Part shown: piece after piece, positions 34,788 to 59,590 of the stretch
Position numbering within the stretch: the first letter of the stretch is position 1
How the letters are laid out: the number at the start of each line of letters is the position of its first letter
NCBI GenBank assembly: GCA_020634975.1
Contig: JACKAQ010000001.1
Span: forward strand, 1,774,857 to 1,838,856
Source of the DNA: Calditrichia bacterium
GTDB taxonomy: Bacteria; Calditrichota; Calditrichia; RBG-13-44-9; J075
DNA: 64,000 bases
Direction: 5' to 3'
Notes under the pieces: model-generated
What the model saw: only the letters and a program-made list of their open reading frames with translations
What the model was told of the DNA's origin: nothing
The model's database searches: none
Program-made: the position numbers and the translations under genes

Positions 34788-37284
34788 CTATTTACTATCA
34801 TGAAATCTGCTAATAATCCGGAACAACTCTTTCGTATCGATCGGTTTGGAAATGTATTCATCCATTCCGGCTTGCATGCATTTTTCGCGATCGCCCTGCA
34901 TGGCGTTTGCCGTTAGTGCGATAATTGGCACATGTGTGCCGGAATTCAGCTCCCGCTGGCGGATTTCGCGGGTGGCGGTCAGACCATCCATCCGGGGCAT
35001 TTGCATGTCCATCAACACAATATCAAACCGAACAGATTCGTGAGCGGCGATGCCTTCCAAACCGTCGTTGGCAACGGTAATTTCGTATCCTTTTTTCTCG
35101 AGCAGCCGCCGGATTAATTTTTGGTTTACCGGGTTATCTTCGACAATCAAAACACGACGACCGTCACCGTTAACATTTTCGTCCTCTGCTTCGTTTTTGA
35201 TATCACAACGGCGCAGTAACTTTCTGTTTTCGTTGACTTTAGGCTGCTCATACAAAAACAGCAGCAACTCGGTAATCCGCACCGCGGAAATCGGTTTTTG
35301 ATAAACACCAGCCGGTCCGACAACGATTCCAGCAATTCCTGATTTCGCCCGTGATGGTGATATTGCATGACAATCACCGGTAAATTGGCGCTGATTATTT
35401 TCTGAATAAAATGGCTGCGGCTTCCTGCTCATTTTGGATGAGATCGGAATCGAGAATGATGGCCGGTATAGCCATCGAAATTTCCGGAAACCAGTGTTCG
35501 CTAACGGAATGAATATCAGAAAATGTCCACACTCTCCGGCAAATACCAGAAAGCGATTTCTCATAATAGCGGGCTGTCGATGCGGATTTTGTGATCACCA
35601 CAACGGAAACATTTCCCAGTTTGTCCAATGGCAATTTCAGGAAATTTGCCGGTGTCGGCGTATCCAGTTTTACTGTAAACCAGAATTCCGACCCTTTGCC
35701 CACTTCGCTGTTAACACCAATTTCGCCGCCCATCAGAAACGCCAGTTCGCGGGAGATGCTCAACCCCAAACCGGTGCCGCCGTAAATGCGCGTGATGGAG
35801 CCGTCCGCCTGCGAAAAGCTCTGGAATATCAAATCTTTTTTTTCCGGCGGAATACCGACGCCGGTATCTTTTATCGAAAATCGAATGGTGGCGGGGCCGT
35901 TTTCCGGGCGATCGAGCAGCTCGGCACGAAGGCGAATTTCACCATTCGAGGTAAATTTTGCGGCATTGCTCAACAAATTGAGCATTATCTGGCGAATTCT
36001 GGTGGGATCACCAAGGTAGGCGCCATACAATCCCGGATCGATCTCCAATACAAAATCGAGCTTTTTTTGCTGAATTTGCAGCGCAATTATCGCAGCCGTT
36101 TGTTCCGTCAGTTCGCCGGTACAGAAGGGTAGTTGTTCGAGGGTCAATTTTCCGGCCTCTATTTTTGAAAAATCCAGAATATCGTTTACCAGGTTCAACA
36201 ACGATTTCGCGCTGGAGAAAATCGTTTCTGCATAATCGTGCTGTTCCGGCGTTAAGTTTGTTTTCAGCAAAAGTTCGTTCATCCCCAAAACGCCGTTTAT
36301 CGGCGTGCGAATTTCGTGGCTCATATTTGCCAAAAATTCACTTTTCATCAGGGTAGATTCTTCCGCCATTTTGCGGGCTTTGTTCAACGCATCCACGGTT
36401 TCTTGCAGGCGCGTTTTTTGGGTTTCCAGCTCCCGGGTACGCTCCTTTACTTTGTAACGGAGCAACATTCCCCAAAACGATACGATCAGCAAACAACCAA
36501 CGATTCCCAACACCAGATAATATTTGATATCGCTGGATAACCCGCTGATTTCAATATCTTTCGGCGACCGGGGATAAATCTGGTAATTGCCGTCGTACGG
36601 TTCGGTGCGATCGTATTGCCCCAAAATGCCGGTTACAGCTATTAGATCGCCGGGTTCAAAACGGGTGAATTCCAGATCGTCCTGCTGCGTTTTTTGGCGA
36701 AATGCCAATATCACTTCCCGGCTTTGCAAATGGAGCATCAGATATTCGCCGGTTTCGATTTTTTCATATTTGAGCAGGCGGGCTTCAAATTGAACCAGTT
36801 GGCCTTCGAATGATTCCATATTTGCGAGGGTTAACTCAACCTCAACGGGATCGGGCGGTTTTGAATCACCGCGATACTGGATAATCTGCTCTGCATCAAT
36901 ATGGGCTAAGCCATTGTTTTGACCGATTTTACCAGCGACGAGTACACTGTCGCCAACTTGCAAATTTCGACTGATGGTTTTGGAAATCACCTGAATGCCT
37001 GCGGTGCCATCCTGAATAAAAATTCGCAATTCGCTCGGGTGAAACACACCTGCCGCCACAGTAACACGACCGGAAATGGTTACTTTTTGACCGATTTTAT
37101 CCGGTAAACCATCGAAATTTTTATCGATCCGGGCTTGCTCAATCGTCATTTTTATCGGCAGCCCGGACGCCGGGTTCATCACAGACGGTTTTGAGCCCCC
37201 CCAAACACTGAGAAAAATGAGAATGATTAATATTCGATAATACTTATTTTCACCCATGAATCGCCCAAATTCCCTTTGAAACAT
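34788..37284 (-). CDS. hybrid sensor histidine kinase with periplasmic OB-fold-like sensor domain and two receiver domains (two frameshifts)
   Basis: N-terminal signal/TM, a periplasmic domain of about 230 aa, a TM helix, a HisKA H-box (MSHEIRTPING), HATPase_c (DTGVGIP...GGTGLGL), a first REC-like domain (PAIILDSDL...) and a second canonical REC (RVLIVEDNP...DIVLMDMQMPRMDG...KPI). The frame changes at two A-runs near 35395 and near 35290. Confidence 0.7.
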
Positions 37285-37585: not shown

Positions 37586-38314
37586 TTATCGCTGAATCAG
37601 CCATTTTATTAGCGGAAAGTTCAACTTTACAACATCATTTTGGACAAAAAATTTCAGCAAGTCTGCGGCGCGTCCAATCACGTTACTGTGCAGCACTTCC
37701 TCCAAAAAATTGACCAGTTTATCTGTCAGCGCCATGCTTTTCTCGAAATTTTGGCTGTCATCGGAAAGCCAGAATTTCAACAGATGAATGTATTCTTTCG
37801 CCAAAACATCATACATTTGGGCATTGAGCAAAAAAGAGCGCTGCAGATCGGGAATTTGCGGATCGCTTTCCAAAATTTCGCCAATGACATCGGCAACTTC
37901 GCGATGAAACGCCGTCCCGGTATTTTGGAAAACCATTTCCCCGAACGTTTCGTCCACAAATTCGCGCTGTTCCTGTAGCAGATCGAACATCATGTAAATA
38001 AAATTGCCCAGCTTTTCAGCCAAACTCATGCTGTGGTAAGCTTCAATTTGCAGCGACATTTCCCGGCAGCGCTGCACGCACAGCGGGTAAAATTGTCCGA
38101 GCACCTGATTTTTGCTGTTGAATTGCTGATAAAATTCACCCTGTTTGATTTTCGCCTTCTGGCAAAGCTGTTTCAGCGTAAAGTTGCCGCCAGTGGTGAT
38201 GTGCAAATCGATTGCCGCATCAATGATCTGCTGACGAATTTCCAGGTTTTCCCGCATGCTATATCCTTTATTTACAACTACCGATGATTGTTTGTTGATA
38301 TTTGCGATATTCAC
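37586..38314 (-). CDS. TetR/AcrR-family transcriptional regulator
   Basis: N-terminal TetR HTH (IIDAAIDLHITTGGNFTLKQLCQKAKIKQGEFYQQF) and an all-helical C-terminal domain. Start is at 38257 or 38314. Confidence 0.7.
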   Translation of the reverse strand: MNIANINKQSSVVVNKGYSMRENLEIRQQIIDAAIDLHITTGGNFTLKQLCQKAKIKQGEFYQQFNSKNQVLGQFYPLCVQRCREMSLQIEAYHSMSLAEKLGNFIYMMFDLLQEQREFVDETFGEMVFQNTGTAFHREVADVIGEILESDPQIPDLQRSFLLNAQMYDVLAKEYIHLLKFWLSDDSQNFEKSMALTDKLVNFLEEVLHSNVIGRAADLLKFFVQNDVVKLNFPLIKWLIQR

Positions 38315-38703: not shown

Positions 38704-39900
38704 TTGCCAACAAAACTGGAGATTTGTTGGTTGACAGGCAAAACAGGCCAATTTATGATGCAGCGCTACTTGAACGACTCGGGCTTTCAGCGAGGTTCGT
38801 GGCAATACCGGGAAAAAATTCTGCTTTCCGGCGTGCTGATGAGTCTTCTGTTGCTGAACAGCCGTTACATCCATCACGGACATGCGTCCGCAACGCTAAA
38901 ACCGGTCACCATTTTTGTCTGGCTGATTGTCGCTACCGGATTTGCTTTGCTGATGTTTCCTGTCGTTATCTGGCTATGCCAACGGTTTCCGCTGGCGCAG
39001 GCACCGGTGAAACACGGGCTGGTCCATTTGGGAATAACCATCGGTGTTGCGATTGCACACCTATTTGTTTTTCGTGATGTTACGTGGCTGATCTGCTCGT
39101 ATTGCCCTGATGCATTTCCAAATGTTTATGCTGCTATCGGAAGCTTTTTTTCAAACCAGATGTTGCCGGCATTGTGTATTTATCCAACGATGCTTGGCAG
39201 CCATTACGCAGTGCTGTTTTGGCACAGCTCCCGCGAACGCGATCGCCAAACCCGGCGGTTGCAGGATGCTCTGCAACGGGCAGAATTGCGCTCGTTGAAT
39301 GCCCAGATCAACCCGCATTTTTTGTTCAATGCGTTGCAGATGATCAGCGCGCTGGTGCACAACGACGCCAACCGTGCAGATCAGGCGATTGTTCAGCTCA
39401 GCAATTTGCTGCGGCTTACCCTTCGCCAAACGGATGTGGAAGTGATCGCGCTGGAACAGGAGCTTGCGATGCTGAAATTGTATCTGGACATCATGCAAAC
39501 TCGTTTTGAGAACACGCTGCAAATTACATTTGACATCGAACCCAAAACGCTGAACGCAGAAGTGCCTTATTTGCTGATGCAGCCATTGGTCGAAAACGCG
39601 ATTGAATACGGCGCAAATCCGGTTGACGATAGCCGGAACATACGCATCAGCGCAGCTATTTCCGGCAGAAAATTACAGTTGGATATCGCCGATAACGGCA
39701 GAGGCTTTTCGTTGGAAGAAGCAAACTGGCAAGATGCCGGCGTTGGTATCTCCAATACTATCAAACGGTTAGAGCAATTATACGGCACCCGTCACCAATT
39801 CCGGATTTCTGACGGGATAGCTGGCGGCGCCAATGTAACAATTTTGATTCCTTTTCGTATTCATAAAGATGCCGCCGCAGTAAACCCTTCAAAGGAGTGA
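38704..39900 (+). CDS. LytS/YehU-type sensor histidine kinase
   Basis: Six TM helices followed by the His_kinase internal region (INPHFLFNALQMISALV) and HATPase_c (LLMQPLVENAIEYG...DNGRGF). Confidence 0.8.
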   Translation: MPTKLEICWLTGKTGQFMMQRYLNDSGFQRGSWQYREKILLSGVLMSLLLLNSRYIHHGHASATLKPVTIFVWLIVATGFALLMFPVVIWLCQRFPLAQAPVKHGLVHLGITIGVAIAHLFVFRDVTWLICSYCPDAFPNVYAAIGSFFSNQMLPALCIYPTMLGSHYAVLFWHSSRERDRQTRRLQDALQRAELRSLNAQINPHFLFNALQMISALVHNDANRADQAIVQLSNLLRLTLRQTDVEVIALEQELAMLKLYLDIMQTRFENTLQITFDIEPKTLNAEVPYLLMQPLVENAIEYGANPVDDSRNIRISAAISGRKLQLDIADNGRGFSLEEANWQDAGVGISNTIKRLEQLYGTRHQFRISDGIAGGANVTILIPFRIHKDAAAVNPSKE

Positions 39901-39904
39901 AAAA

Positions 39905-40678
39905 ATGAAGTACATTCGAACGTTAATCGTCGATGATGAACCGCTGGCACGCGAAAAACTGCGCCATTTACTGGACGCAGAAAACGATGTGCAAGTGGTC
40001 GCCGAATGCGATAATGGCGAAAAAGCGCTCGCAATGGTTCGCGTAACCGCACCGGAAATCGTATTTCTGGATATTAATTTGCCCGGAATGATGGGCACGG
40101 AAATCGCGGATACACTCAACCAGCTCGTCAAACCGCCGGCGGTGGTTTTTGTTTCGGCACACAATCAATTTGCGATGAAAGCCTTCGAACTGAACGTGCT
40201 CGATTACCTGCTGAAGCCGTTTGATCCGGCGCGACTCAAAAAAGCCATTCAAAAATACCGCGATTTACACCAGACAGAAACGCCGGAAGCGCTGGATTCG
40301 CACCTGCAAAGCCTGCTTTCCCAGCTCACTCGTCGCCCGCGATACATGGAGCGCGTGCTCATCCGCAGCGGCGATGATATTTTGATCATGAAAACAGATG
40401 ATATCGATTGGATTGAAGCGGCGGGAAACTACGTCTATCTGCACACCGGCAAAAAATCGCGTTTGCTACGCGAAACGATGAACAATTTGCAGGAAAAACT
40501 CGATCCGGATAAATTTATCCGCATCCATCGCTCCTGCATCGTGAATATCGAGCGGATTCGCAAAATGCAGCCGTCATCGCATGGGGAATTGATCATCGTG
40601 ATGAGCGACAACACCGAGCTGACCCTCACACGAACATACCGGGACAACCTCATCGGGCGATTCGAAATCCCGGCTTAG
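39905..40678 (+). CDS. LytTR-family response regulator
   Basis: REC domain (LIVDDEPLAR...IVFLDINLPGMMG) and a C-terminal LytTR DNA-binding domain (FIRIHRSCIVNIERI). It starts 4 bp after the kinase stop. Confidence 0.85.
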   Translation: MKYIRTLIVDDEPLAREKLRHLLDAENDVQVVAECDNGEKALAMVRVTAPEIVFLDINLPGMMGTEIADTLNQLVKPPAVVFVSAHNQFAMKAFELNVLDYLLKPFDPARLKKAIQKYRDLHQTETPEALDSHLQSLLSQLTRRPRYMERVLIRSGDDILIMKTDDIDWIEAAGNYVYLHTGKKSRLLRETMNNLQEKLDPDKFIRIHRSCIVNIERIRKMQPSSHGELIIVMSDNTELTLTRTYRDNLIGRFEIPA

Positions 40679-40684
40679 CAGCTA

Positions 40685-43027
40685 CTAAGCATCAACTTTG
40701 TAATCGACTTGCGGGGCTTCCTGCAGTGCCACCAAACCGCTGTCGATGTGATGATTCAGCGTGCTGACCACTTCATCTTTCGCGGAAAAATAGAGGATTT
40801 GCCAACCTTGTTTGGAAATTTCCACCAGCATATCCAATTGCTGCCGCAACCGTTTGGAATCGGATTTGAGAAACGGGTCATCGAGAATAAAAAAGCCCTT
40901 TTCCGATTGTAGCAACCGTTCGCCAAGCGCGATCCGCACGGCAAAATAAAGCTGGTCATACGCACCGCTTGATAGCCACGAGGGCAGCAATTTTTTGCCG
41001 TCGCTGCGCTGAATGCGAATGCCACTTTCATCTGCATCGTAATGCACAACCGGATAAAGCGCATCGGTTATTTCGCTGTAAATATTAGAGATACGACTAC
41101 CTTCTCCAAACAATTCGCGAATTTTTTCGCGCTCTTCCCGTTCGATTTCTTCAAAAATATTGATGGATGTCCGCACGTTGTGCTGACGCATTTCCGTATC
41201 GCTAATGAACTGTTTGAGCATGTGATCCAGCTGCTTCAGATCGCTGAGTGTACGGCTGGGAAAGCGGTCTTCTTCCGGCAATACAACCTCGTACGCCCGA
41301 CGTTCGATATCACCGAGGCGGGTGCGAAATTCATGCAATTGCTGCTGCAACATCTGAATTTCCGACAGCAAATCATCCCGTTCATCGGTTGCCTGTGCCA
41401 GCGTTTTTTCCTCGAATGCAATGTTCGCTGCTTCGGATTGGTAGCTTCGCAAATCGTAAACCGATGATTCCCACTGCTGCAATTGCTCCGTCAAATCGCC
41501 GGATGCCGGACCAAAAAAGCTGGTGAGAACCGTGACAGACTCGTTGATTTTTTGCTCCACCCGCTGGCGCTCTTTCAGCTTGCGCTGGTATTCCGCCGGC
41601 GTGTCCATTTTGCTGGATTGATGAATTTTTTTGATGCTGTTTTGCGCTTCGGAAATACGTGCCTGTAATCCTTCGATGCGCTCATCGCGCAAATTTGCGT
41701 AGGTTTTCTCTAGAAACTGAACGCGGCTCTCTGCTTCATTAATTTGCTTTTGTTGTCGCTGATAGGTTTCTTCCAGCCGCAAAATCTGCTCCTGTATCTG
41801 CGATAGATTCTCGCCAGGAAGGTTGATTTCTTCAGCCATCAGCAAGGCATCCGACACCCGTAACTGATGTTCGCCGGTGGGGCTGATAAACCGGAAATAG
41901 TAAAAAAGCGACATCAAAAAAGTGCCGGTTGCAGACGATGCCGCCGCAACCAAAATGCCCGTATTTCCCGGCTGCCACATCACTCCCGCCAGCGAAATTA
42001 GCGCCACCAGTAAAAACACGGCTATCGCCGTAGTGAAGAACGGTTTGCTCGCCATAAACTTGGCGTTGTCTTTACGGTATTCGTTCATTTGCTGCATGAG
42101 CGGGCGGAGCCGGTTATCTACCGCAAACTTCCGTTGGCGAACCACCTCAAACGTATTGCGTTGTTCGAGTAATTTGCGCTGCTCTTCCGCAAGCTCATTT
42201 TCGATGGACTGGCTTTGCCGGATGCTGGCGTTCAATTCGGCTTCTTTTTCGCGAACCACATTTTCCATCTGCTGCCATTGCAGATAAATTTCGTCGTTAA
42301 GTTCTGGAAAAACATTGAGTTGTTGCTGGAGATTGTAAATCAGGTCGAGATGACGCCGCCCGTTTTCATAGCGCTCCCGCTGGCGGGCTTTGCCCAATCC
42401 GCTGATGCGCTCTTCGGCGCTTCGCAGCCGTTGCTGGATTTCCACCAGATTTTCTTCCACAATATCGTAGCCATCGGACGCAGCTTCGTGATAGAGCAAT
42501 TCGCACTCATCCACCAATTCCCGCGCTGCCAGCAATCGCTTTTTGAGATAGTGGCTTTCGCGAGTATTCACCACTTCCATCGTTGGCGTAAAATCACCGA
42601 TTTCCCGCAATTTGTCGATCACTTTTTGCACCGATCCGGTTCGCAAACCGGTCAGGCGTTCGGAAATGGCGTCGTAAAATTCGCTTTCGCGGGAGATCGT
42701 CAAATCGCTGTTGCGAATGATGAACAGGTTGCGATATTCCTCCGCAGTAACGTTCATGATGCTGGAAATATCACCGGCTTCCGGCAGCATAAACGTTTCG
42801 CCGGACTGATTTTCAAGTTGCAAATACCCTTCCGGCCGGTGCGAAACCCGGTCGATGCCCGGGAAAATTTTTGCGCGTTTGCCGAGCAGGAAATTGACCA
42901 TCGCTTCGAGAGTGAGGGTTTTTCCGTCTTCGTTATTGCCATAAAAAAGGTTGAAGTTTTCCAGTTTGACCACGCCGCTTTCGCCCAACGGGCCATAGCG
43001 ATGGACTCGGAACTCCTTTATTCTCAT
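40685..43027 (-). CDS. YhaN-like SbcC/SMC-type ATPase with central transmembrane hairpin
   Basis: N-terminal Walker A (GNNEDGKT) in an AAA_23-like head, long coiled coils, two adjacent hydrophobic helices mid-protein (FFTTAIAVFLLVALISLAGV, ILVAAASSATGTFLMSLFYYF), a C-terminal signature-like motif (SSGAYDQLYFAVRIAL) and Walker B/D-loop (FFILDDPF). Confidence 0.7.
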   Translation of the reverse strand: MRIKEFRVHRYGPLGESGVVKLENFNLFYGNNEDGKTLTLEAMVNFLLGKRAKIFPGIDRVSHRPEGYLQLENQSGETFMLPEAGDISSIMNVTAEEYRNLFIIRNSDLTISRESEFYDAISERLTGLRTGSVQKVIDKLREIGDFTPTMEVVNTRESHYLKKRLLAARELVDECELLYHEAASDGYDIVEENLVEIQQRLRSAEERISGLGKARQRERYENGRRHLDLIYNLQQQLNVFPELNDEIYLQWQQMENVVREKEAELNASIRQSQSIENELAEEQRKLLEQRNTFEVVRQRKFAVDNRLRPLMQQMNEYRKDNAKFMASKPFFTTAIAVFLLVALISLAGVMWQPGNTGILVAAASSATGTFLMSLFYYFRFISPTGEHQLRVSDALLMAEEINLPGENLSQIQEQILRLEETYQRQQKQINEAESRVQFLEKTYANLRDERIEGLQARISEAQNSIKKIHQSSKMDTPAEYQRKLKERQRVEQKINESVTVLTSFFGPASGDLTEQLQQWESSVYDLRSYQSEAANIAFEEKTLAQATDERDDLLSEIQMLQQQLHEFRTRLGDIERRAYEVVLPEEDRFPSRTLSDLKQLDHMLKQFISDTEMRQHNVRTSINIFEEIEREEREKIRELFGEGSRISNIYSEITDALYPVVHYDADESGIRIQRSDGKKLLPSWLSSGAYDQLYFAVRIALGERLLQSEKGFFILDDPFLKSDSKRLRQQLDMLVEISKQGWQILYFSAKDEVVSTLNHHIDSGLVALQEAPQVDYKVDA

Positions 43028-44085
43028 TCGTTTATCTCCATCATTGCCTTCACGGTAACATCCAGAATGCGCTGCTTTTCCGCGTCATCCAAATCTCTGG
43101 CATCCAGCCGTTCCCGGAATCTTTTGAACAGATCGTTCTCCAGCACTTCGTGCACATCGCGAAATTCAATGCTGGCGATATCGCCTTTTTCGCTGACCAG
43201 CCGCAACAACGCCTCGCGCAGTTCCGTTTCGCTCATCGCCAATTTTTTGCTGTTGATAAATCCGTTGATGTGCAGCAGCATTCCGGCGTGTTCCGGCAAA
43301 TTAACCATCCGTTCGGTGATCGTTTGCAGCGGCGTTTTCTCCGCAAACGGATCCAGCGAAATTCGCAAAATGTGATAATAAAAACTATTGAGCAATCGCG
43401 GCTGCGGCACTTCGCCAATGGTAAATAAATTCACTTTGCGGATGCCCGTTTCCCGGCGGGTAACCGAAACCGGTGACCCGGAATACACAAAGTATTGATT
43501 TTCCTGAATTTCGTGCACCGAAAAATTGCTATGAAAATGTCCCGCGAGTACGTATTGCCACGGCAATCGCTGAAAATAGCTGAGCTTTACGGGCAAATAC
43601 CGTTGCCGCCCTTCCTCGCCATATTCCGCCCATCCGCCAATCATATCATACAATTCGCCGTGGAATAAAAGCACGTGGGTTGCGTCAGGTTCGGCGCGTT
43701 CCGCAGCCATTGTCAAAAATGGCAGGATTTCTTCTTCACCCATTTCTTCGTAGGGAAATCCCCAAAAGCATACGCCGTCGATGGTTTCCGGCATCAGCAA
43801 ATCACGCAATATGGTCACGTTATCACCAAAATAGGTGCCATCCGGATAAGCGTTGGCATCGTGATTTCCCGGGATGATCAGCACGTTCCCGCCAAATCGT
43901 TCGAAAACTTCGCGGATTTTTGGGCGTAATGTTTGCCCGTCGGCATCGCTATCGAACAGATCGCCGCTGATGGCCAGCACACGAACATTTTCTGATTGCG
44001 CCAGTTCAACAACCCGTTCCAGTGCCTGCCATCGCACATCGGTAATGCTGCGTAAATGCAAATCTGCTGTGTGTAAAATTTTCAT
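43024..44085 (-). CDS. YhaO-like calcineurin-type metallophosphoesterase (SbcD-like nuclease)
   Basis: MPP motifs (ILHTADLHL, GDLFD, GNHD, GHFH). Its stop overlaps the ATPase start (ATGA), which suggests translational coupling. Confidence 0.75.
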   Translation of the reverse strand: MKILHTADLHLRSITDVRWQALERVVELAQSENVRVLAISGDLFDSDADGQTLRPKIREVFERFGGNVLIIPGNHDANAYPDGTYFGDNVTILRDLLMPETIDGVCFWGFPYEEMGEEEILPFLTMAAERAEPDATHVLLFHGELYDMIGGWAEYGEEGRQRYLPVKLSYFQRLPWQYVLAGHFHSNFSVHEIQENQYFVYSGSPVSVTRRETGIRKVNLFTIGEVPQPRLLNSFYYHILRISLDPFAEKTPLQTITERMVNLPEHAGMLLHINGFINSKKLAMSETELREALLRLVSEKGDIASIEFRDVHEVLENDLFKRFRERLDARDLDDAEKQRILDVTVKAMMEINE

Positions 44086-44372
44086 AAATTTGCGTTTTGC
44101 TTCCGTTTCGGATCCGGTTTTGTGGTAATATCACTACAAAATAACGGAAATTTTGTCTTTTATGCAAGATATGAATTTTGGTGAGTTGGGAATGTGACGC
44201 AAGTGACGCCATTTTTTTCTGGCTGTTTGAAAATTACGTATGTTAGGTTTACTTTGCACCGGCGAATGATGATTTAAAAATTGAAGATGAAATCGTAATA
44301 ATACCGCCCTTCGGCTTTGCTCGGGGAGTAAACGTTAGGTCGCCGGGCTCGCCGATGCGTATTCTTAAACTT

Positions 44373-44397
44373 TTATCCTTTATCCTTTATCCTTTAT
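44373..44397 (+). repeat. 3x tandem 9-mer tcctttatc immediately upstream of the ATG at 44400
   Basis: The sequence ttatcctttatcctttatcctttat ends 2 nt before the start codon. It relates to the motif that recurs at 22447-22471, 48463-48473 and 6127-6141. Confidence 0.6.
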
Positions 44398-44399
44398 AA

Positions 44400-45230
44400 A
44401 TGATAACATCAGAGAAAACAAGTCGTTACCAATTCCCGCCGGGAACGCAAACCTGGCGAATAAACAAAGAAATCGCACTGCTGCTCGGCGGCGGGCGCGC
44501 GCTGCTGATGCAAATTGCCCACCCGATGGTCGCACAGGGTGTTGCTGATCACAGCGATTTTCGAGAACGACCGCTAGACCGACTGTTTCGCACATTGTTC
44601 AGCATTATCCAGATTGTATTTGCGGAGCGCGAAGTTGCCCAACAAGTTGCCGCCCGCGTTCGCACTGTTCACCGCAGCGTTACCGGCGAAATGGGCGAAA
44701 CGGTTGGTTCGTTCGAACAAAAGCGGCGGTATTTTGCAGAAAATCCGGTGCTGCTGATGTGGGTTTTTGCCACGCTGGTGGATACTTCGATTGTCATTTA
44801 CGAGCTGCTGTTTCAACCGTTGAGCGATGCGGAAAAAGAGCAGTTTTACCGGGAAAGCTGCATTTGGGGCGGTTGGTTGGGCGTTTCGGCAGATGTGCTG
44901 CCGCCGGATTATCCGGCATTTTGCAGCTATCTGCAAAGCATGGCAGACACCGGACAACTGGCAGTTGGCGTTGCGGGGCGCGAGATTTGCGAAAGTATTT
45001 TTCGTCCGAATATTCGTTGGATTCCCAATATTGCGCTGGCGCCGGTGAAATTTTTGACGATCGGGATGCTGCCAAAATCATTACGCCCCGCATTCGGTTT
45101 CGATTGGTCTGATCGGCAGGAAAAACGCTTCCGCCGGATTATTTCCATTTTTCGTTGGTTGTTGCGATTCACGCCGGAACGGATGCGGTCATTGCCGATG
45201 GCCTGGAAAATTCGCCGGGAAACCCGTTGA
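44400..45230 (+). CDS. MpaB/rubber-oxygenase-family (DUF2236) protein
   Basis: DUF2236 signature (LLGGGRALLMQIAHPMVAQGV...RVRTVHRSV). Confidence 0.7.
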   Translation: MITSEKTSRYQFPPGTQTWRINKEIALLLGGGRALLMQIAHPMVAQGVADHSDFRERPLDRLFRTLFSIIQIVFAEREVAQQVAARVRTVHRSVTGEMGETVGSFEQKRRYFAENPVLLMWVFATLVDTSIVIYELLFQPLSDAEKEQFYRESCIWGGWLGVSADVLPPDYPAFCSYLQSMADTGQLAVGVAGREICESIFRPNIRWIPNIALAPVKFLTIGMLPKSLRPAFGFDWSDRQEKRFRRIISIFRWLLRFTPERMRSLPMAWKIRRETR

Positions 45231-45391
45231 AATCACGCTCTTCAAACGATGTTACCAGGGTAGGTTATTGCGCAATTGAAACATCGTGAAAAACAAACCG
45301 ATTTTTTATCAAAGTTCAATATTGTGTAATTTAAACCTTTTGATGGAAAACCAAGTTCAACTACATTTATCTCAAAAATTATGGTAGGTGC

Positions 45392-45426
45392 AAAAAAAAA
45401 ACGGGACAAAAATAAACTGTCCCGCG
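45392..45426 (-). terminator. intrinsic terminator for the hemerythrin gene
   Basis: Stem cgggaca / tgtcccg with a 9-nt loop. It is preceded on the plus strand by A10, which reads as a U-tract on the minus strand. Confidence 0.75.
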
Positions 45427-45454
45427 AAAATAAGTTACAATTTTTTGCCACTAT

Positions 45455-45874
45455 TTAGTGGGAGGAATCGGTGTGAACGCACGATGCCAGACCGCCGTCA
45501 ATTTTTTTGATGTGTGATACCAGCCAGTCTGTCAGCTCTTTGTACATCCGCATCGCCAGATCGTCGGAAGCGCCGTTGCGATAATCGCTTTCAAACTGCA
45601 AAAATGTTTCAATAAATTTGGCGTGAGCACCTTTGTTGGCTTTTGCTGTCGGACAATTGAACTTTTCCATACATTTTTCTTCGCGCTCAAAATGCCAAAC
45701 GGTGTAATATTTCAGCAAATTGATGACTTTTTTTACTGCCTGACGCCCTTTTTTCTGCTCGATAACATCCGCAAGTTCATTAATAATATCGATGAGATAT
45801 TTGTGCTGGATATCCACCGCGCGATTACCGGAACTTAGCGAGTCATCCCAGGCGATTCTCAGAGATCCACTCAT
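45455..45874 (-). CDS. bacteriohemerythrin-like protein
   Basis: Hemerythrin cation-binding His/Glu pattern (DIQHKYL, WHFEREE, HAKF, HIKKID) in 139 aa. Confidence 0.7.
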   Translation of the reverse strand: MSGSLRIAWDDSLSSGNRAVDIQHKYLIDIINELADVIEQKKGRQAVKKVINLLKYYTVWHFEREEKCMEKFNCPTAKANKGAHAKFIETFLQFESDYRNGASDDLAMRMYKELTDWLVSHIKKIDGGLASCVHTDSSH

Positions 45875-56239: not shown

Positions 56240-59200
56240 TTGGGGAAATTGATGCTGGGACAATCCATTCTCCATTACAACATCATCGAAAAGCTCGGCG
56301 AAGGCGGAATGGGCGTGGTGTATCTCGCTGAAGATACGCGGCTCGGGCGAAATGTTGCCATCAAATTTTTGCCGGATCATATTGCCAACGACAGCGAATC
56401 GCGGGAGCGGTTTGTCAACGAGGCAAAAGCAGCCGCTGCGCTCAATCACCCCAACATCGCCCAAATTTACGCCATCGAAAATAGCGAAGATGCACAATTT
56501 ATTGTGATGGAATATGTTGACGGTAACGAACTCATTGAGGCGATTCGTGAATCGCCCCTACATCCAGAGGTTGCCATCGACTACGCAAACCAAATTGCGA
56601 ACGGGTTGCATGCAGCACATGAAAAAGGCATTATTCATCGCGATATCAAACCGACGAACATCATGATTACCGGTGACGGGCAGGTGAAAATCATGGATTT
56701 CGGGCTGGCGAAAATGGCCGATGCCGCGCTGAAAACCCGCCAGGGCACAACACTCGGCACTTTCGCATACATGAGCCCGGAGCAGGCGCAGGGCATGACG
56801 GTCGATTATCGCACCGACATCTGGTCGCTGGGCGTGGTGTTTTATCAAATGATTGCCGGAAAAGCACCGTTCGAGGGCGATTACGAACAGGTGCTGATTT
56901 ACGCCATCCTCAACGAATCGCCGGAAAAACTCGCGGAAACGCGACCGGAAATTCCCGCCGAAATCGATGCGATTATCGAAAAAGCGCTCGCCAAAAATCC
57001 CGATGAACGCTTTGCGACGATGGCGGAAATGATCGCCGCGCTGAATGCGATTCAATCAAAACCAGGTAAAAGCGCAGGCGAAACAAAATTGCCCAAAGAA
57101 GATCCGCAGGCAGAGCAAATCGGGCCGTATAAAATTCGTCAGCAGATCGGCGAGGGCGGCATGGGCGAAGTGTATCTCGCGGAGCAAATCGCCCCGGTGC
57201 GCCGAAAAGTAGCGCTCAAAATCATCAAATTGGGGATGGACAGCAAACAAATTGTGGCGCGATTCGAAGCGGAACGGCAGGCGCTGGCAGTGATGGATCA
57301 TCCGAACATCGCCAAAGTTTTTGAAGCCGGAACCACCGACAAAGGTCGCCCATATTTTGTGATGGAATACGTTCCCGGCGTGCCGTTGAACACCTATTGC
57401 GATACGGAACGGCTTTCCACCAACGAACGGCTGGAGTTGTTCACCGCCATCTGCGGTGCCGTGCAGCATGCTCACCAAAAGGGCGTTATTCACCGCGATT
57501 TGAAGCCGTCGAACATCCTCGTTTCGCTGCAGGACGGCAAACCGGTGCCCAAAATTATCGATTTCGGCATCGCGAAAGCAATCCACACGCCGCTCACCGA
57601 CAGCACGTTGGTGACTGCCATCGGCGAGGTGGTGGGCACGCCCGCATACATGAGCCCGGAGCAACTGGAAAATTCCCAACTGGATATTGACACGCGATCG
57701 GATATTTATTCGCTCGGCGTGATACTGTTTGAATTGCTCGCCGGCGCGTTGCCCTTCGATTTCAGCGAATACCAAAAACCGGGCGATTCGCTGCAAAAAA
57801 TGATTCGCGAAACCGATCCGCCAACGCCCAGCAAACGGCTGCAAACCATCGGCGATGTGCGGGAAAAAATCGCCAGAAATCGCCGCACGGATGCCGGATC
57901 GCTGCACAAAAAGCTCGCGGGCGATCTCGACTGGATCACCGTGAAAGCGATGGAAAAAGATCGCAATCGCCGCTACGAGACCGCTAACGGTTTGGCGATG
58001 GACATCCGGCGATATTTGAATGACGAACCGGTTTTTGCGCGACCGCCGAGCGCAGGCTACCGTATTTCAAAATTTGTGCGGCGCAACCGATTGGCGGTGA
58101 TCGCTGCCGGCGTTGCCGTTTCAGGATTGCTGATCGGGTTCATTTTCGCAACAGCCGGATTTGTCCGCGCCACCAAAGCGGAGCAGAAAGCCTCCCGCGA
58201 AGCTGAATCTGCCCGGCAAGTCTCCAATTTTTTGATCGATCTGTTCAAAATTTCCGATCCCACCGAAGCCGTTGGCGACACGATTTCTGCGCGGCAATTG
58301 CTCGACCGCAGCGCCGAGCGCATCGGCGCAGAGCTCAAAAATGAGCCGGTAATTCAGGCGCGACTAATGCACACGATGGGCAAAGTATATTCGGAAATGG
58401 GGCTGTTCGGGCGATCCAAACCGCTGCTGGATTCCGCGCTGGCCAAACAGCGGGCGCTGCTCGACACCCAAAATCCGGAACTCGGCGCGACGCTGCACGA
58501 TCTCGGTTACACTTATTATCAGCTTGGCGAATTTGACAGTGCGCAGGTGCTGATGGAACAATCGCTGCAAATTTTCCGCGAAAACGGCAATCACGAAAAA
58601 GTGGTGCAAAATCTCCGGCAGCTCGGCGATGTCTGGGAGGAAAAAGGCGACCAGGAAAAGCAGCTCAACTATCATCAGGAATCTGTTGAATATGCTGAAC
58701 AAACCATCGGTAAAAATAATATTCAGTACGCGGAATCGGTGTCGAAACTCTCGTTTGCGCTGGCAAATCAGGGCAAATACGAGGCAGCGGAGCCGCTGGT
58801 TCGGGAAGCGTTGCGCATCGCCAAAGCGCAGGTCGGCGACGATCACTGGCTGACCAGCCGCATCAAAATTGATCTCGCGTGGTGGCTGCTGGATTTGAGC
58901 CGCAACGACGAAGCCGTCCAATTGTTCAACGAGGCGCTGGAAACATTCAAAAAAATATACGGGCCGGATCATCCGGAAACGGCCATCGCGATGAGCAATC
59001 TGGCGTCCACTTACACATCGCTCAATCGCCACGAAGATGCCATTGAACTGCACAAACAGGCAGTAACCATTTTCAAAAAACGCTACGGCAATGTGCATTA
59101 CGACGTGGCAACGGCGATGAACAATTACGGACGTTCGCTGGTGCTCAAAGGCGATTACGACGCTGCGGAAAAAGTGTTGTGGGAAGTGGTGTCCATTTAC

Positions 59201-59590
59201 GAAACGCTATATGGCAAAGACACGCCGCGACCGGCGGCAGCATACACCAATCTCGGTCGCGCTGCACTCGCAAAAAAGGATTTCCGGCGGGCTGAGGAAT
59301 ACCTCAAAAAAGCGGTGGCGATGTTTACCGAACTGGTTGGCGATGCGCATCCGGTGCTCAGCTATCCCATGTTTGAACTGGCGAAGCTGAAAACCGAAAC
59401 CGGCGATGTTGCGGCAGCGGAAGTGGTTTTCCGGCAGGTAATCGCGCTTCGCGAAGCGGCATTTGGCGAAGCCAACGAAGAAGTGCTGCAAGCCCAAACC
59501 GCTTATGCCGCGTTACTGCGGCAGATGAATCGCCCGGCAGCAGCAGATTCGGTAGTAAAACGGGTAGCAGAGATGTCGATTCAAAATTGA
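56240..59590 (+). CDS. Ser/Thr protein kinase with two tandem kinase domains, one TM helix and a C-terminal TPR array
   Basis: Kinase domain 1 is at roughly 56270-57050 (GEGGMGVVYLAED, HRDIKPTN, DFGLAK, YMSPEQ). Kinase domain 2 is at roughly 57120-57920 (GEGGMGEVYLAEQ, HRDLKPSN, DFGIAK, YMSPEQ). A TM helix lies at about 58090-58160, followed by about 400 aa of TPR-like repeats. Confidence 0.85.
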   Translation: MGKLMLGQSILHYNIIEKLGEGGMGVVYLAEDTRLGRNVAIKFLPDHIANDSESRERFVNEAKAAAALNHPNIAQIYAIENSEDAQFIVMEYVDGNELIEAIRESPLHPEVAIDYANQIANGLHAAHEKGIIHRDIKPTNIMITGDGQVKIMDFGLAKMADAALKTRQGTTLGTFAYMSPEQAQGMTVDYRTDIWSLGVVFYQMIAGKAPFEGDYEQVLIYAILNESPEKLAETRPEIPAEIDAIIEKALAKNPDERFATMAEMIAALNAIQSKPGKSAGETKLPKEDPQAEQIGPYKIRQQIGEGGMGEVYLAEQIAPVRRKVALKIIKLGMDSKQIVARFEAERQALAVMDHPNIAKVFEAGTTDKGRPYFVMEYVPGVPLNTYCDTERLSTNERLELFTAICGAVQHAHQKGVIHRDLKPSNILVSLQDGKPVPKIIDFGIAKAIHTPLTDSTLVTAIGEVVGTPAYMSPEQLENSQLDIDTRSDIYSLGVILFELLAGALPFDFSEYQKPGDSLQKMIRETDPPTPSKRLQTIGDVREKIARNRRTDAGSLHKKLAGDLDWITVKAMEKDRNRRYETANGLAMDIRRYLNDEPVFARPPSAGYRISKFVRRNRLAVIAAGVAVSGLLIGFIFATAGFVRATKAEQKASREAESARQVSNFLIDLFKISDPTEAVGDTISARQLLDRSAERIGAELKNEPVIQARLMHTMGKVYSEMGLFGRSKPLLDSALAKQRALLDTQNPELGATLHDLGYTYYQLGEFDSAQVLMEQSLQIFRENGNHEKVVQNLRQLGDVWEEKGDQEKQLNYHQESVEYAEQTIGKNNIQYAESVSKLSFALANQGKYEAAEPLVREALRIAKAQVGDDHWLTSRIKIDLAWWLLDLSRNDEAVQLFNEALETFKKIYGPDHPETAIAMSNLASTYTSLNRHEDAIELHKQAVTIFKKRYGNVHYDVATAMNNYGRSLVLKGDYDAAEKVLWEVVSIYETLYGKDTPRPAAAYTNLGRAALAKKDFRRAEEYLKKAVAMFTELVGDAHPVLSYPMFELAKLKTETGDVAAAEVVFRQVIALREAAFGEANEEVLQAQTAYAALLRQMNRPAAADSVVKRVAEMSIQN

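Follow-up and report, generated by a model that had tools for sequence, protein, structure and literature searches.

Proteins of the SMC (structural maintenance of chromosomes)/Rad50 type are usually described as soluble rings or rods, with either a hinge or a zinc hook closing them. Here we describe a gene pair whose ATPase is instead predicted to carry a membrane hairpin at this position. The pair lies within a 64,000-nucleotide stretch of DNA (called the window below) from a Calditrichia bacterium (assembly GCA_020634975.1, contig JACKAQ010000001.1, positions 1,774,857 to 1,838,856 of the forward strand). Its first gene codes for a 353-amino-acid Mre11/SbcD-type Mn-phosphoesterase (43024..44085, minus strand), and its second codes for a 780-amino-acid Rad50/SMC-like ABC ATPase with a predicted transmembrane apex (40685..43027, minus strand). 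The pair belongs to a widespread branch of the little-known YhaN/SbcE family.

In Bacillus subtilis, SbcE (YhaN) is an SbcC-like protein without a CxxC motif. It has a unique central domain that is hydrophobic in its first half, carries a highly conserved proline, and is completely insoluble (PMC2811018). The same study assigns SbcE a part in double-strand-break repair and in transformation, reports polar foci in competent cells, and cites yeast two-hybrid data that support an interaction between SbcE and SbcF (YhaO), although co-precipitation of the two proteins failed (PMC2811018). The yhaONM genes have been listed under lexA/SOS control, and they were induced approximately 8.7-fold by H2O2 in Bacillus pumilus (PMC3896406). 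Our searches of the literature on COG4717, AAA_27, and membrane-anchored Rad50 turned up the 2009 SbcE paper as the only relevant source. Likewise, two recent reviews, one on Mre11/Rad50 (PMC7752040) and the other on SMC-based immunity (PMC10586767), make no mention of SbcE/YhaN or of a membrane apex. The zinc hook of Rad50 is known as a constitutive dimerization module that can be exchanged with an SMC hinge, as set out in one report (PMC6969161) and in a review (PMC7752040). SMC-like ATPases are also used as sensors in Lamassu and Wadjet (PMC10586767).

We propose, with moderate confidence, that the Calditrichia pair would act as a self-contained, membrane-tethered complex for DNA-end processing that is of the Mre11/Rad50 type and of the SbcE/SbcF kind.

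The nuclease and ATPase subunits

Judging from homology, both open reading frames (ORFs) are real genes rather than chance reading frames, since the full-length homologues of the ATPase number in the hundreds and those of the nuclease exceed 2000. An earlier account of this locus, made from its letters and referred to below as the preliminary description, had correctly placed both ORFs, with their lengths and the ATGA overlap between them. This 4-nucleotide stop/start overlap (43024..43027, minus strand) reads GAA TGA in one frame and ATG AGA in the other, which strongly suggests translational coupling. A 98%-identical copy of the pair is present in a 6.3-Mb Calditrichia chromosome (locus L013). 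Among 87 related loci found by tblastn, the two genes are separated by a gap of 0 to 24 nucleotides in 83, and an Mre11-like gene lies directly upstream of the ATPase gene at every one of the 87 loci with room for it. The two genes make up an obligate module.

The nuclease matches the Pfam family Metallophos (7e-14), and its best sequence match in the Protein Data Bank (PDB) is Staphylococcus aureus SbcD (7dog_A, 1e-5). The NCBIfam models for SbcD match only its N-terminal motifs at scores far under their cut-offs, and the match of the NCBIfam SMC model to the partner ATPase is also far under cut-off. All five calcineurin-like motifs (DxH, GD, GNHD/E, H, and GHxH) are intact. In homologue alignments, these phosphoesterase motifs I to V correspond to D8xH10, G41D42, G73N74H75D76, H142, and G182H183xH185 (43528..44070, minus strand). 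Residues D8, H10, G41, D42, G73, N74, H75, D76, H142, and G182 are invariant among 57 nuclease homologues, whereas conservation of H183 and H185 is 90% or more in this set and complete in an 11-sequence alignment.

The AlphaFold2 (AF2) model of the nuclease has a mean pLDDT of 90.3, and the top 50 PDB structures retrieved with it by Foldseek are all Mre11 or SbcD, with no other metallophosphatase among them. The best is Thermotoga maritima Mre11 from an Mre11:Rad50 complex (3tho_B, 1.6e-16, more than 350 columns). Alignment lengths of 340 to 415 columns cover the whole 353-residue model, including its capping domain. We conclude that the protein is very strongly predicted to be an intact phosphoesterase of the Mre11/SbcD fold, in agreement with the SbcD-like assignment made in the preliminary description. 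At its C terminus, the model has helices at residues 312 to 315, 318 to 329, and 334 to 351 (312 to 351 together correspond to 43033..43152, minus strand), and conservation is 90% or more for L319, F320, F323, L327, and A347. By analogy to the Rad50-binding domain of Mre11, the helix-loop-helix formed by residues 318 to 329 and 334 to 351 is a candidate ATPase-binding element.

The ATPase retrieves only Rad50 heads in PDB sequence searches, with E-values of 4e-5 for the single sequence and 9e-10 for the family profile (Pyrococcus furiosus Rad50). Its AF2 model (mean pLDDT 84.2) shows, in order, an N-terminal half-head, helices at residues 161 to 326, a helix at 328 to 351, a four-residue turn, a continuous helix at 356 to 400, further helices up to 638, and a C-terminal half-head. 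Helices 161 to 326 and 380 to 638 are predicted to form an antiparallel coiled coil on either side of the apex, with arms of approximately 160 helical residues each, or about 24 nm as estimated from the secondary-structure string. The near-invariant residues W251 and W519 sit at conserved breaks in these arms, which suggests the presence of a joint. Foldseek ranks Rad50 first (7zr1_C, 6e-14), followed by Smc5/6, MukB, condensin, LmuB, and JetC. Thus, the SbcC/Rad50-like assignment of the preliminary description is well borne out, and we regard it as very strongly predicted that the protein is a Rad50-like ABC ATPase whose half-heads are joined via the coiled coil. As an observation on the wider family, the 890-residue homologues P0042, P0176, and P0289 have an insertion of approximately 110 residues in the N-terminal arm, and they match the family profile in three stretches.

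Several motifs of an SMC-type split ABC ATPase are present and align to P. furiosus Rad50, namely Walker A, the signature motif, and the D-loop. Walker A is GNNEDGKT (residues 30 to 37; 42917..42940, minus strand), in which N32, E33, G35, and K36 are invariant in a 47-sequence alignment. The ABC signature is LSSGAYDQLY (residues 685 to 694; 40946..40975, minus strand), with L685, S686, G688, D691, and Q692 invariant. Walker B and the D-loop together form FFILDDPFLKSD (residues 712 to 723; 40859..40894, minus strand), which aligns to LLILDEPTPYLD of Rad50 and has the Walker B core FFILDDPF at residues 712 to 719. The Walker A, signature, and FFILDDPF motifs had all been recognized previously. 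In the HMMER alignment of the ATPase family profile to P. furiosus Rad50, LSGGaYDQLY is paired with LSGGERIALGL, FFilDDPF with LLILDEPT, iKaDkeR with PYLDEER, and QilYFsAKdE with QVILVSHDEE.

These pairings reveal that the catalytic residues of Rad50 are replaced. Asp717 takes the place of the catalytic Walker B glutamate, and the H-loop equivalent, QILYFSAKDE (residues 743 to 752; 40772..40801, minus strand), has Ala749 opposite the Rad50 histidine, followed by an invariant Lys750. In the Q-loop-equivalent strand, FIIRNSDLT (residues 102 to 110; 42698..42724, minus strand), N106 stands where glutamine would be expected, in a register relative to Rad50 that we presume rather than take from a tool-made alignment. 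Among 185 full-length family members, the Walker B pair is DD in 177 and DE in none, the H-loop position has SAK, TAK, or SSK but histidine in no case, and the Q-loop equivalent follows the motif R[ND]S[DN]. The invariance of D716, D717, K750, and E752 in the 47-sequence alignment argues for selection on the site and against its decay. Given the fixed change of Glu to Asp, the missing His, and the change of Gln to Asn or Asp, ATP turnover is probably slow or differently catalyzed, and the site is probably kinetically unlike that of Rad50.

This non-canonical catalytic set could also be taken to mean that the pair does not act on DNA, and that a membrane-associated coiled-coil ATPase, for example one for membrane remodeling or tethering, is combined with a phosphodiesterase for some other phosphoester, such as nucleotides or lipids. 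Metallophos enzymes have many substrates, and one homologue has been named by the Joint Genome Institute (JGI) after the membrane coiled-coil protein YoxC. We consider this explanation highly improbable, as the nuclease model resembles Mre11/SbcD over its full length with no other metallophosphatase among the top 50 structures, Rad50 is the best match of the ATPase by both structure and sequence, and the gene order and coupling are those of sbcDC and yhaON.

The predicted hairpin at the coiled-coil apex

The window ATPase contains a single cysteine and no CxxC motif, and CxxC occurs in the central region of only 2 of 47 homologues. A hydrophobic hairpin therefore sits where the zinc hook would be. 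Predicted transmembrane helix 1 (residues 328 to 351; 41975..42046, minus strand) has a maximal Kyte–Doolittle value of 2.47 over 19 residues and a Hessa sum of -1.9 kcal/mol, and it coincides with an AF2 helix. A short, predicted external loop of sequence QPGN follows (residues 352 to 355; 41963..41974, minus strand), in which P353 is conserved. Predicted transmembrane helix 2 (residues 356 to 379; 41891..41962, minus strand) runs into the C-terminal arm as part of the AF2 helix at 356 to 400, and has corresponding values of 1.59 and +2.1 kcal/mol. Every other 19-residue segment of the protein scores +10.7 or higher on the Hessa scale. The two adjacent hydrophobic helices noticed in the preliminary description are accordingly present, and the hairpin is retained in 184 of 185 full-length family members.

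The hydrophobic segments fall at a relative position of 0.42 to 0.49 in all 47 aligned homologues. Across the family they average 24 and 22 residues, with 0.06 and 0.04 Asp or Glu per sequence, and on the Hessa scale the median over the family is -1.6 kcal/mol for helix 1 and +0.4 kcal/mol for helix 2. The loop averages approximately four residues and has P353 in 30 of 47 sequences, and the flanking stretches on both sides are rich in Lys and Arg (3.5 to 3.6 Lys plus Arg). Within the hairpin only S345, L346, G348, and P353 are conserved. The remaining sequence drifts while its hydrophobicity is kept, which fits helices that face lipid. The topology is likely to be N-in/C-in with a minimal external loop, to judge from these sequence features. 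The preliminary description went too far in presenting membrane insertion as described for Bacillus YhaN, although the hydrophobic, insoluble central domain and the conserved proline are indeed reported for that protein (PMC2811018).

Another way to view the hairpin is as a soluble, buried four-helix dimerization core standing in for the zinc hook or hinge, which would make the protein a cytosolic SbcCD paralogue. The marginal Hessa value of helix 2 (+2.1) would fit such a core, as would the discrete foci formed by Bacillus SbcE fused to yellow fluorescent protein, for which no uniform membrane signal was seen (PMC2811018). Moreover, Rad50 and SMC proteins themselves have a dimerization module at their apex, according to a review (PMC7752040) and another report (PMC6969161). 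However, segments of 22 to 24 residues that are nearly free of acidic residues and are flanked by Lys and Arg on both sides are more readily explained by a membrane, as are the value of -1.9 kcal/mol for helix 1 and the family medians. Sequence drift with preserved hydrophobicity in 184 of 185 members is likewise typical of lipid-facing helices and not of a packed core, and the central domain of SbcE is completely insoluble (PMC2811018). We therefore view a soluble core as quite improbable, and return to membrane insertion as the preferred reading.

Relation to known systems, distribution, and genomic context

The window ATPase matches the Pfam family AAA_27 (PF13514) with 23.2 bits, compared to a gathering threshold of 22, and only its residues 1 to 49 are matched to this model of 206 positions. 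Many of its homologues carry a precomputed PF13514 match, and the names given to them by JGI vary among YhaN, SbcC, and YoxC. For comparison with YhaN we used a Clostridial COG4717 family that is labeled YhaN by JGI, as a proxy for the B. subtilis protein. This family of approximately 755 residues, which was seeded by one distant match (P0054), has strong PF13514 matches, a Metallophos gene directly upstream (locus L093), and a two-helix hydrophobic hairpin at residues 355 to 410. An hhalign comparison of the window family with this group gave a probability of 99.5% (E = 3e-23) from just past the hairpin to the C terminus, and 96.8% for the N-terminal 81 residues.

The window pair therefore shares several features with SbcE/SbcF. 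In both, the nuclease gene is located immediately upstream of the SMC-like ATPase gene, and in both the center of the ATPase is occupied, in place of a zinc hook, by a hydrophobic domain or hairpin that carries a conserved proline. There are also clear distinctions. The Clostridial YhaN group retains a canonical active site, with an invariant Q138, D702-E703, and H736, whereas the window clade has DD, Ala-Lys, and Asn or Asp at these positions. Unlike yhaONM, the window-clade pairs have no yhaM-type third gene conserved beside them, either in the lineages examined or at 46 loci from the GTDB collection, and the window pair is without a recognizable Cheo or LexA box upstream. Furthermore, the window clade extends across many phyla and into archaea rather than being a group of Bacillota, and its members have approximately 780 residues compared to about 960 for Bacillus YhaN. 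The YhaN-like reading in the preliminary description thus holds for homology, hairpin, and upstream nuclease; classification as an ordinary YhaN is not supported. As far as sequence comparison can tell, the pair shares architecture and ancestry with SbcEF and is part of a separate clade with an altered active site, probably a sister to the COG4717 YhaN group.

Given its intact Mre11 active site and an ABC ATPase with a signature motif, Walker A, and D-loop that align to Rad50, the pair also resembles SbcCD and Mre11-Rad50 in joining a nuclease to an antiparallel coiled-coil ATPase. Unlike SbcCD, the window ATPase has a predicted membrane hairpin at its apex in place of a CxxC zinc hook, shorter arms (approximately 160 residues), and replacements at the catalytic Glu, His, and Gln positions. 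SbcCD would be the wrong annotation for the pair. A relation to Lamassu LmuB or Wadjet JetC is visible in the SMC-like fold (Foldseek approximately 1e-5 to 1e-6). In comparisons with SbcC, Rad50, YhaN, and LmuB, which had been named in the preliminary description as candidates, Rad50 was the best match and homology to the YhaN family was evident, whereas the PADLOC model for LmuB gave only a weak, generic match (3e-6, 24.7 bits). Unlike Lamassu and Wadjet, the window pair has no LmuA effector, kleisin-like LmuC, or JetA, JetB, or JetD; its partner is of the Mre11 type, and its apex is a membrane hairpin by prediction. With the partners missing, the scores weak, and Rad50 a better match, membership of either system was rejected.

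The family is large. A word-indexed search from the window ATPase found 53 full-length homologues, and an exhaustive search with a HMMER profile against 1.84 billion representatives recovered at least 640 clusters (50% identity) at E<=1e-30. The best 150 of these clusters are mostly full-length proteins of approximately 775 residues that score at least 654 bits, and about a dozen of them are truncated or carry an insertion. A scan of GTDB that used one genome per species and two peptide patterns, and hence gives a lower bound, located the family in at least 302 of 185,579 species. More than 15 bacterial phyla are represented, including Calditrichota, Aerophobetes, Sumerlaeota, Thermodesulfobacteriota, Chloroflexota, Bacillota, Atribacteria, Planctomycetota, Spirochaetota, Aminicenantes, Thermotogota, Bacteroidota/Ignavibacteria, and Marinimicrobia. 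Four archaeal lineages carry the family as well (Thermoplasmatota, Methanoperedens, Bathyarchaeia, and Methanobacteriota).

Within Calditrichia, the pair looks vertically inherited, because the identities of homologues are graded (98%, 62%, 53 to 56%, 44 to 46%, and 37 to 40%, compared to approximately 31 to 37% for other phyla) and flanking genes are held in common. Specifically, two Calditrichia lineages have rpsT upstream and, on the downstream side, xseAB together with genes for HU and a TPR protein. A divergent MpaB/Lcp gene like that of the window is also present in one of these two. Outside this class, one Thermoplasmatota ATPase shares 72.6% identity with a counterpart from Aerophobetes, the nuclease that goes with it shares 81% with a bacterial nuclease, and several Bacillota and Chloroflexota copies are 67 to 71% identical to copies from other phyla. 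These values imply that the pair is transferred horizontally as a unit, although errors in the binning of metagenome-assembled genomes could inflate them.

The contexts of the pair vary and are mostly ordinary. In seven gene-called lineages, the neighbors include greA, lysS, purH, and dnaK; gatCAB, purA, and selAB; glycosidases; and HIT and PNP. One locus among the seven sits amid genes for type I restriction-modification, a transposase, and an integrase. We also surveyed two genes on each side of the pair at the 46 GTDB loci, which yielded 150 crudely called proteins. These contain 204 Pfam families, none of which occurs in more than four proteins (ResIII in four and MpaB in three). PADLOC matches among the 150 at E<=1e-10 are scattered, consist mainly of a few type I restriction or helicase proteins, and are too few for statistics. 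Neighbors that were spot-checked include two HsdR-like proteins and one helicase fused to a restriction endonuclease (helicase-REase), in addition to an MrfA-like helicase, DnaE, and a tricorn protease. Overall, restriction or mobile-element genes (type I R subunits, helicase-REase) adjoin the pair at L011, L042, L043, and L023. The window around the pair holds metabolic, transport, and signaling genes and no defense gene. Phage records, plasmid records, and 2.9 million IMG/VR contigs contained no family members, only short generic ABC-motif matches. A match on a Vescimonas "plasmid" was rejected as a family member, since the matched part is limited to the C-terminal ATPase motifs, or 14% of the query, and no upstream nuclease is listed for it in the incomplete gene table of PLSDB. 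Any association of the pair with defense islands is weak at best.

Two further observations concern these neighbors. In a Bathyarchaeia locus (L045:1496-4885), a second SMC_N/AAA_23 ATPase of 694 residues and a 434-residue gene lie directly upstream of the pair, and they may represent a canonical Rad50/Mre11 or a Lamassu-like module. One surveyed neighbor matched the PADLOC model for LmuB at 1e-36, and this may be the 694-residue ATPase of L045.

The distribution and contexts described above bear on a rival explanation, in which the pair serves surveillance of foreign DNA. An inner-membrane complex would degrade linear ends that enter via phage infection, conjugation, or transformation, and would constitute a stand-alone defense or anti-plasmid system. 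The patchy, transfer-prone distribution makes restriction of incoming DNA a serious rival, which we would rate as a tentative possibility. Spread of the intact pair between phyla and between domains, a self-contained two-gene design in changing contexts, and the restriction, helicase-REase, or mobile-element genes next to the four loci named above would all fit such a role. So would the SMC-like sensors of Lamassu and Wadjet (PMC10586767), the recovery of LmuB and JetC by Foldseek, and the gathering of Bacillus SbcE at the DNA-uptake pole (PMC2811018). Conversely, the LmuB match is weak and comes without Lamassu or Wadjet partners, most sampled contexts consist of metabolic, translation, or repair genes, and the most frequent neighbor family accounts for no more than 4 of 150 proteins. 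The absence of copies from the plasmid, phage, and IMG/VR sequences searched, the seemingly vertical inheritance in Calditrichia, and the lack of a defense gene around the pair in the window also speak against it.

The immediate neighbors of the pair in the window had been proposed to form a sensor/regulator and ATPase-nuclease island with it. Pfam confirms both the identities and the positions of these genes, which are a LytS-type His_kinase/HATPase_c gene (38704-39900, plus strand), a Response_reg and LytTR gene (39905-40678, plus strand), and a TetR_N/TetR_C_23 gene (37586-38314, minus strand). The island itself does not hold up. The same neighbors recur only in the 98%-identical L013, are absent near the pair in the other lineages examined, and are not among the recurrent neighbor families at the 46 GTDB loci (LytTR, His_kinase, and TetR). 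In addition, the LytS/LytTR genes are convergent to the ATPase gene. Because these neighbors are confined to a near-identical strain, the island is an accident of the gene order of this strain. The LytS/LytTR and TetR genes are unrelated to the pair and should not be linked to it in annotation. The only window neighbor kept beyond the near-identical strain is an MpaB/Lcp-type oxygenase gene (44400-45230, plus strand) that is divergent from the nuclease gene and is also seen in a 46%-identical Calditrichia lineage (L001:7774-8625 and L002:2060-2911).

The regulatory sequences near the pair offer few candidates. A scan of positions 40000-45500 for promoters and terminators gave counts that are not clearly above the shuffled expectation, and no Cheo box was recognized upstream of the nuclease gene. 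An imperfect palindrome of 24 bp, TTTTGTGGTAAT|ATCACTACAAAA (44118..44141), lies 33 to 56 nucleotides upstream of the nuclease start. Outside the window it recurs in the 98%-identical L013 alone, and other Calditrichia are without it. As a candidate operator that may be specific to the strain, it would perhaps serve the nearby TetR protein; whether it belongs to the nuclease/ATPase system is uncertain. In L001, L014, L015, and L016 (Calditrichaceae), a promoter-like sequence, TTCTTG-N17-19-TGCTGTAAnATTTTT, is found just 5′ of the nuclease gene, and the window lineage is without it. At the other end of the pair, the LytTR stop codon (TAG, 40676-40678) and the ATPase stop codon (TAG, 40685-40687) are separated by six bases. 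An 18-bp near-palindrome, GCTTAGCAGCTACTAAGC (40673-40690), covers both of these convergent stop codons with no T-run after it, and it may be a hairpin common to the two gene ends.

Two observations on other window genes can be added. An 1116-residue protein (56240-59590, plus strand) has two Pkinase stretches and a long TPR array (TPR_12/TPR_10), and in another Calditrichia locus (L003), giant FG-GAP/Pkinase proteins related to it are encoded close to the pair. Elsewhere, a response-regulator ORF (34788-35564, minus strand) overlaps the upstream HisKA/HATPase_c kinase ORF (35395-37284, minus strand) by 170 nucleotides. The true start of the former is probably well downstream, as its receiver domain begins at residue 138.

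Proposed mechanism and biological role

Our preferred reading, a membrane-tethered complex for DNA-end processing, can be set out as follows. The two proteins would form a 2:2 complex, with the nuclease and both heads in the cytoplasm and the hairpin in the inner membrane. Two hairpins would pack against each other in the bilayer and provide constitutive dimerization at the apex, which is the role of the zinc hook in Rad50. ATP-driven engagement of the heads might then clamp DNA ends or hairpins and gate the nuclease as in SbcCD, with ATP binding serving as the main switch more than rapid hydrolysis. The membrane anchor would limit nuclease activity to DNA at the cell periphery.

Several points weigh against this reading. 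The second helix of the window ATPase is marginal (+2.1 kcal/mol), and insertion of the hairpin into the membrane is predicted from hydropathy scales only. The comparison with YhaN was made through the Clostridial proxy family. The presence of the family in at least 302 of 185,579 species is patchy, which is unusual for a core repair function, and the module is clearly mobile between phyla and domains outside Calditrichia. No LexA box of any of five known types was found upstream of the nuclease gene. Finally, a mechanism unlike that of Rad50 could lie behind the three ATPase-site substitutions.

The biological role is the weakest step of the proposal. By analogy, we favor end processing of a repair or recombination type. 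For the Calditrichia pair, the simplest assumption would be a chromosomal function in repair or recombination, as for Bacillus SbcEF. This role is favored because of the analogy to SbcEF and the stable chromosomal position of the pair in Calditrichia.

The clade described herein is large and coherent, and it combines a predicted membrane-hairpin apex with a systematically altered ATPase catalytic triad. If the prediction is true, then the pair offers a compact, two-protein system in which to ask what the apex contributes to Mre11/Rad50 function and whether DNA-end processing is confined spatially to the cell envelope. It would also bear on the role of YhaN/YhaO-type proteins, whether in repair or in the control of incoming DNA. 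We speculate further that the clade could be a distinct membrane-tethered Mre11/Rad50 machine that inspects DNA at the cytoplasmic membrane as it arrives by phage infection, conjugation, or transformation, using ATP binding as a long-lived clamp and the bilayer as a dimerization platform. This extension is rather unlikely in our estimation. If it is true, then the pair would represent a new stand-alone form of innate immunity or a DNA-entry checkpoint that is common to bacteria and archaea.

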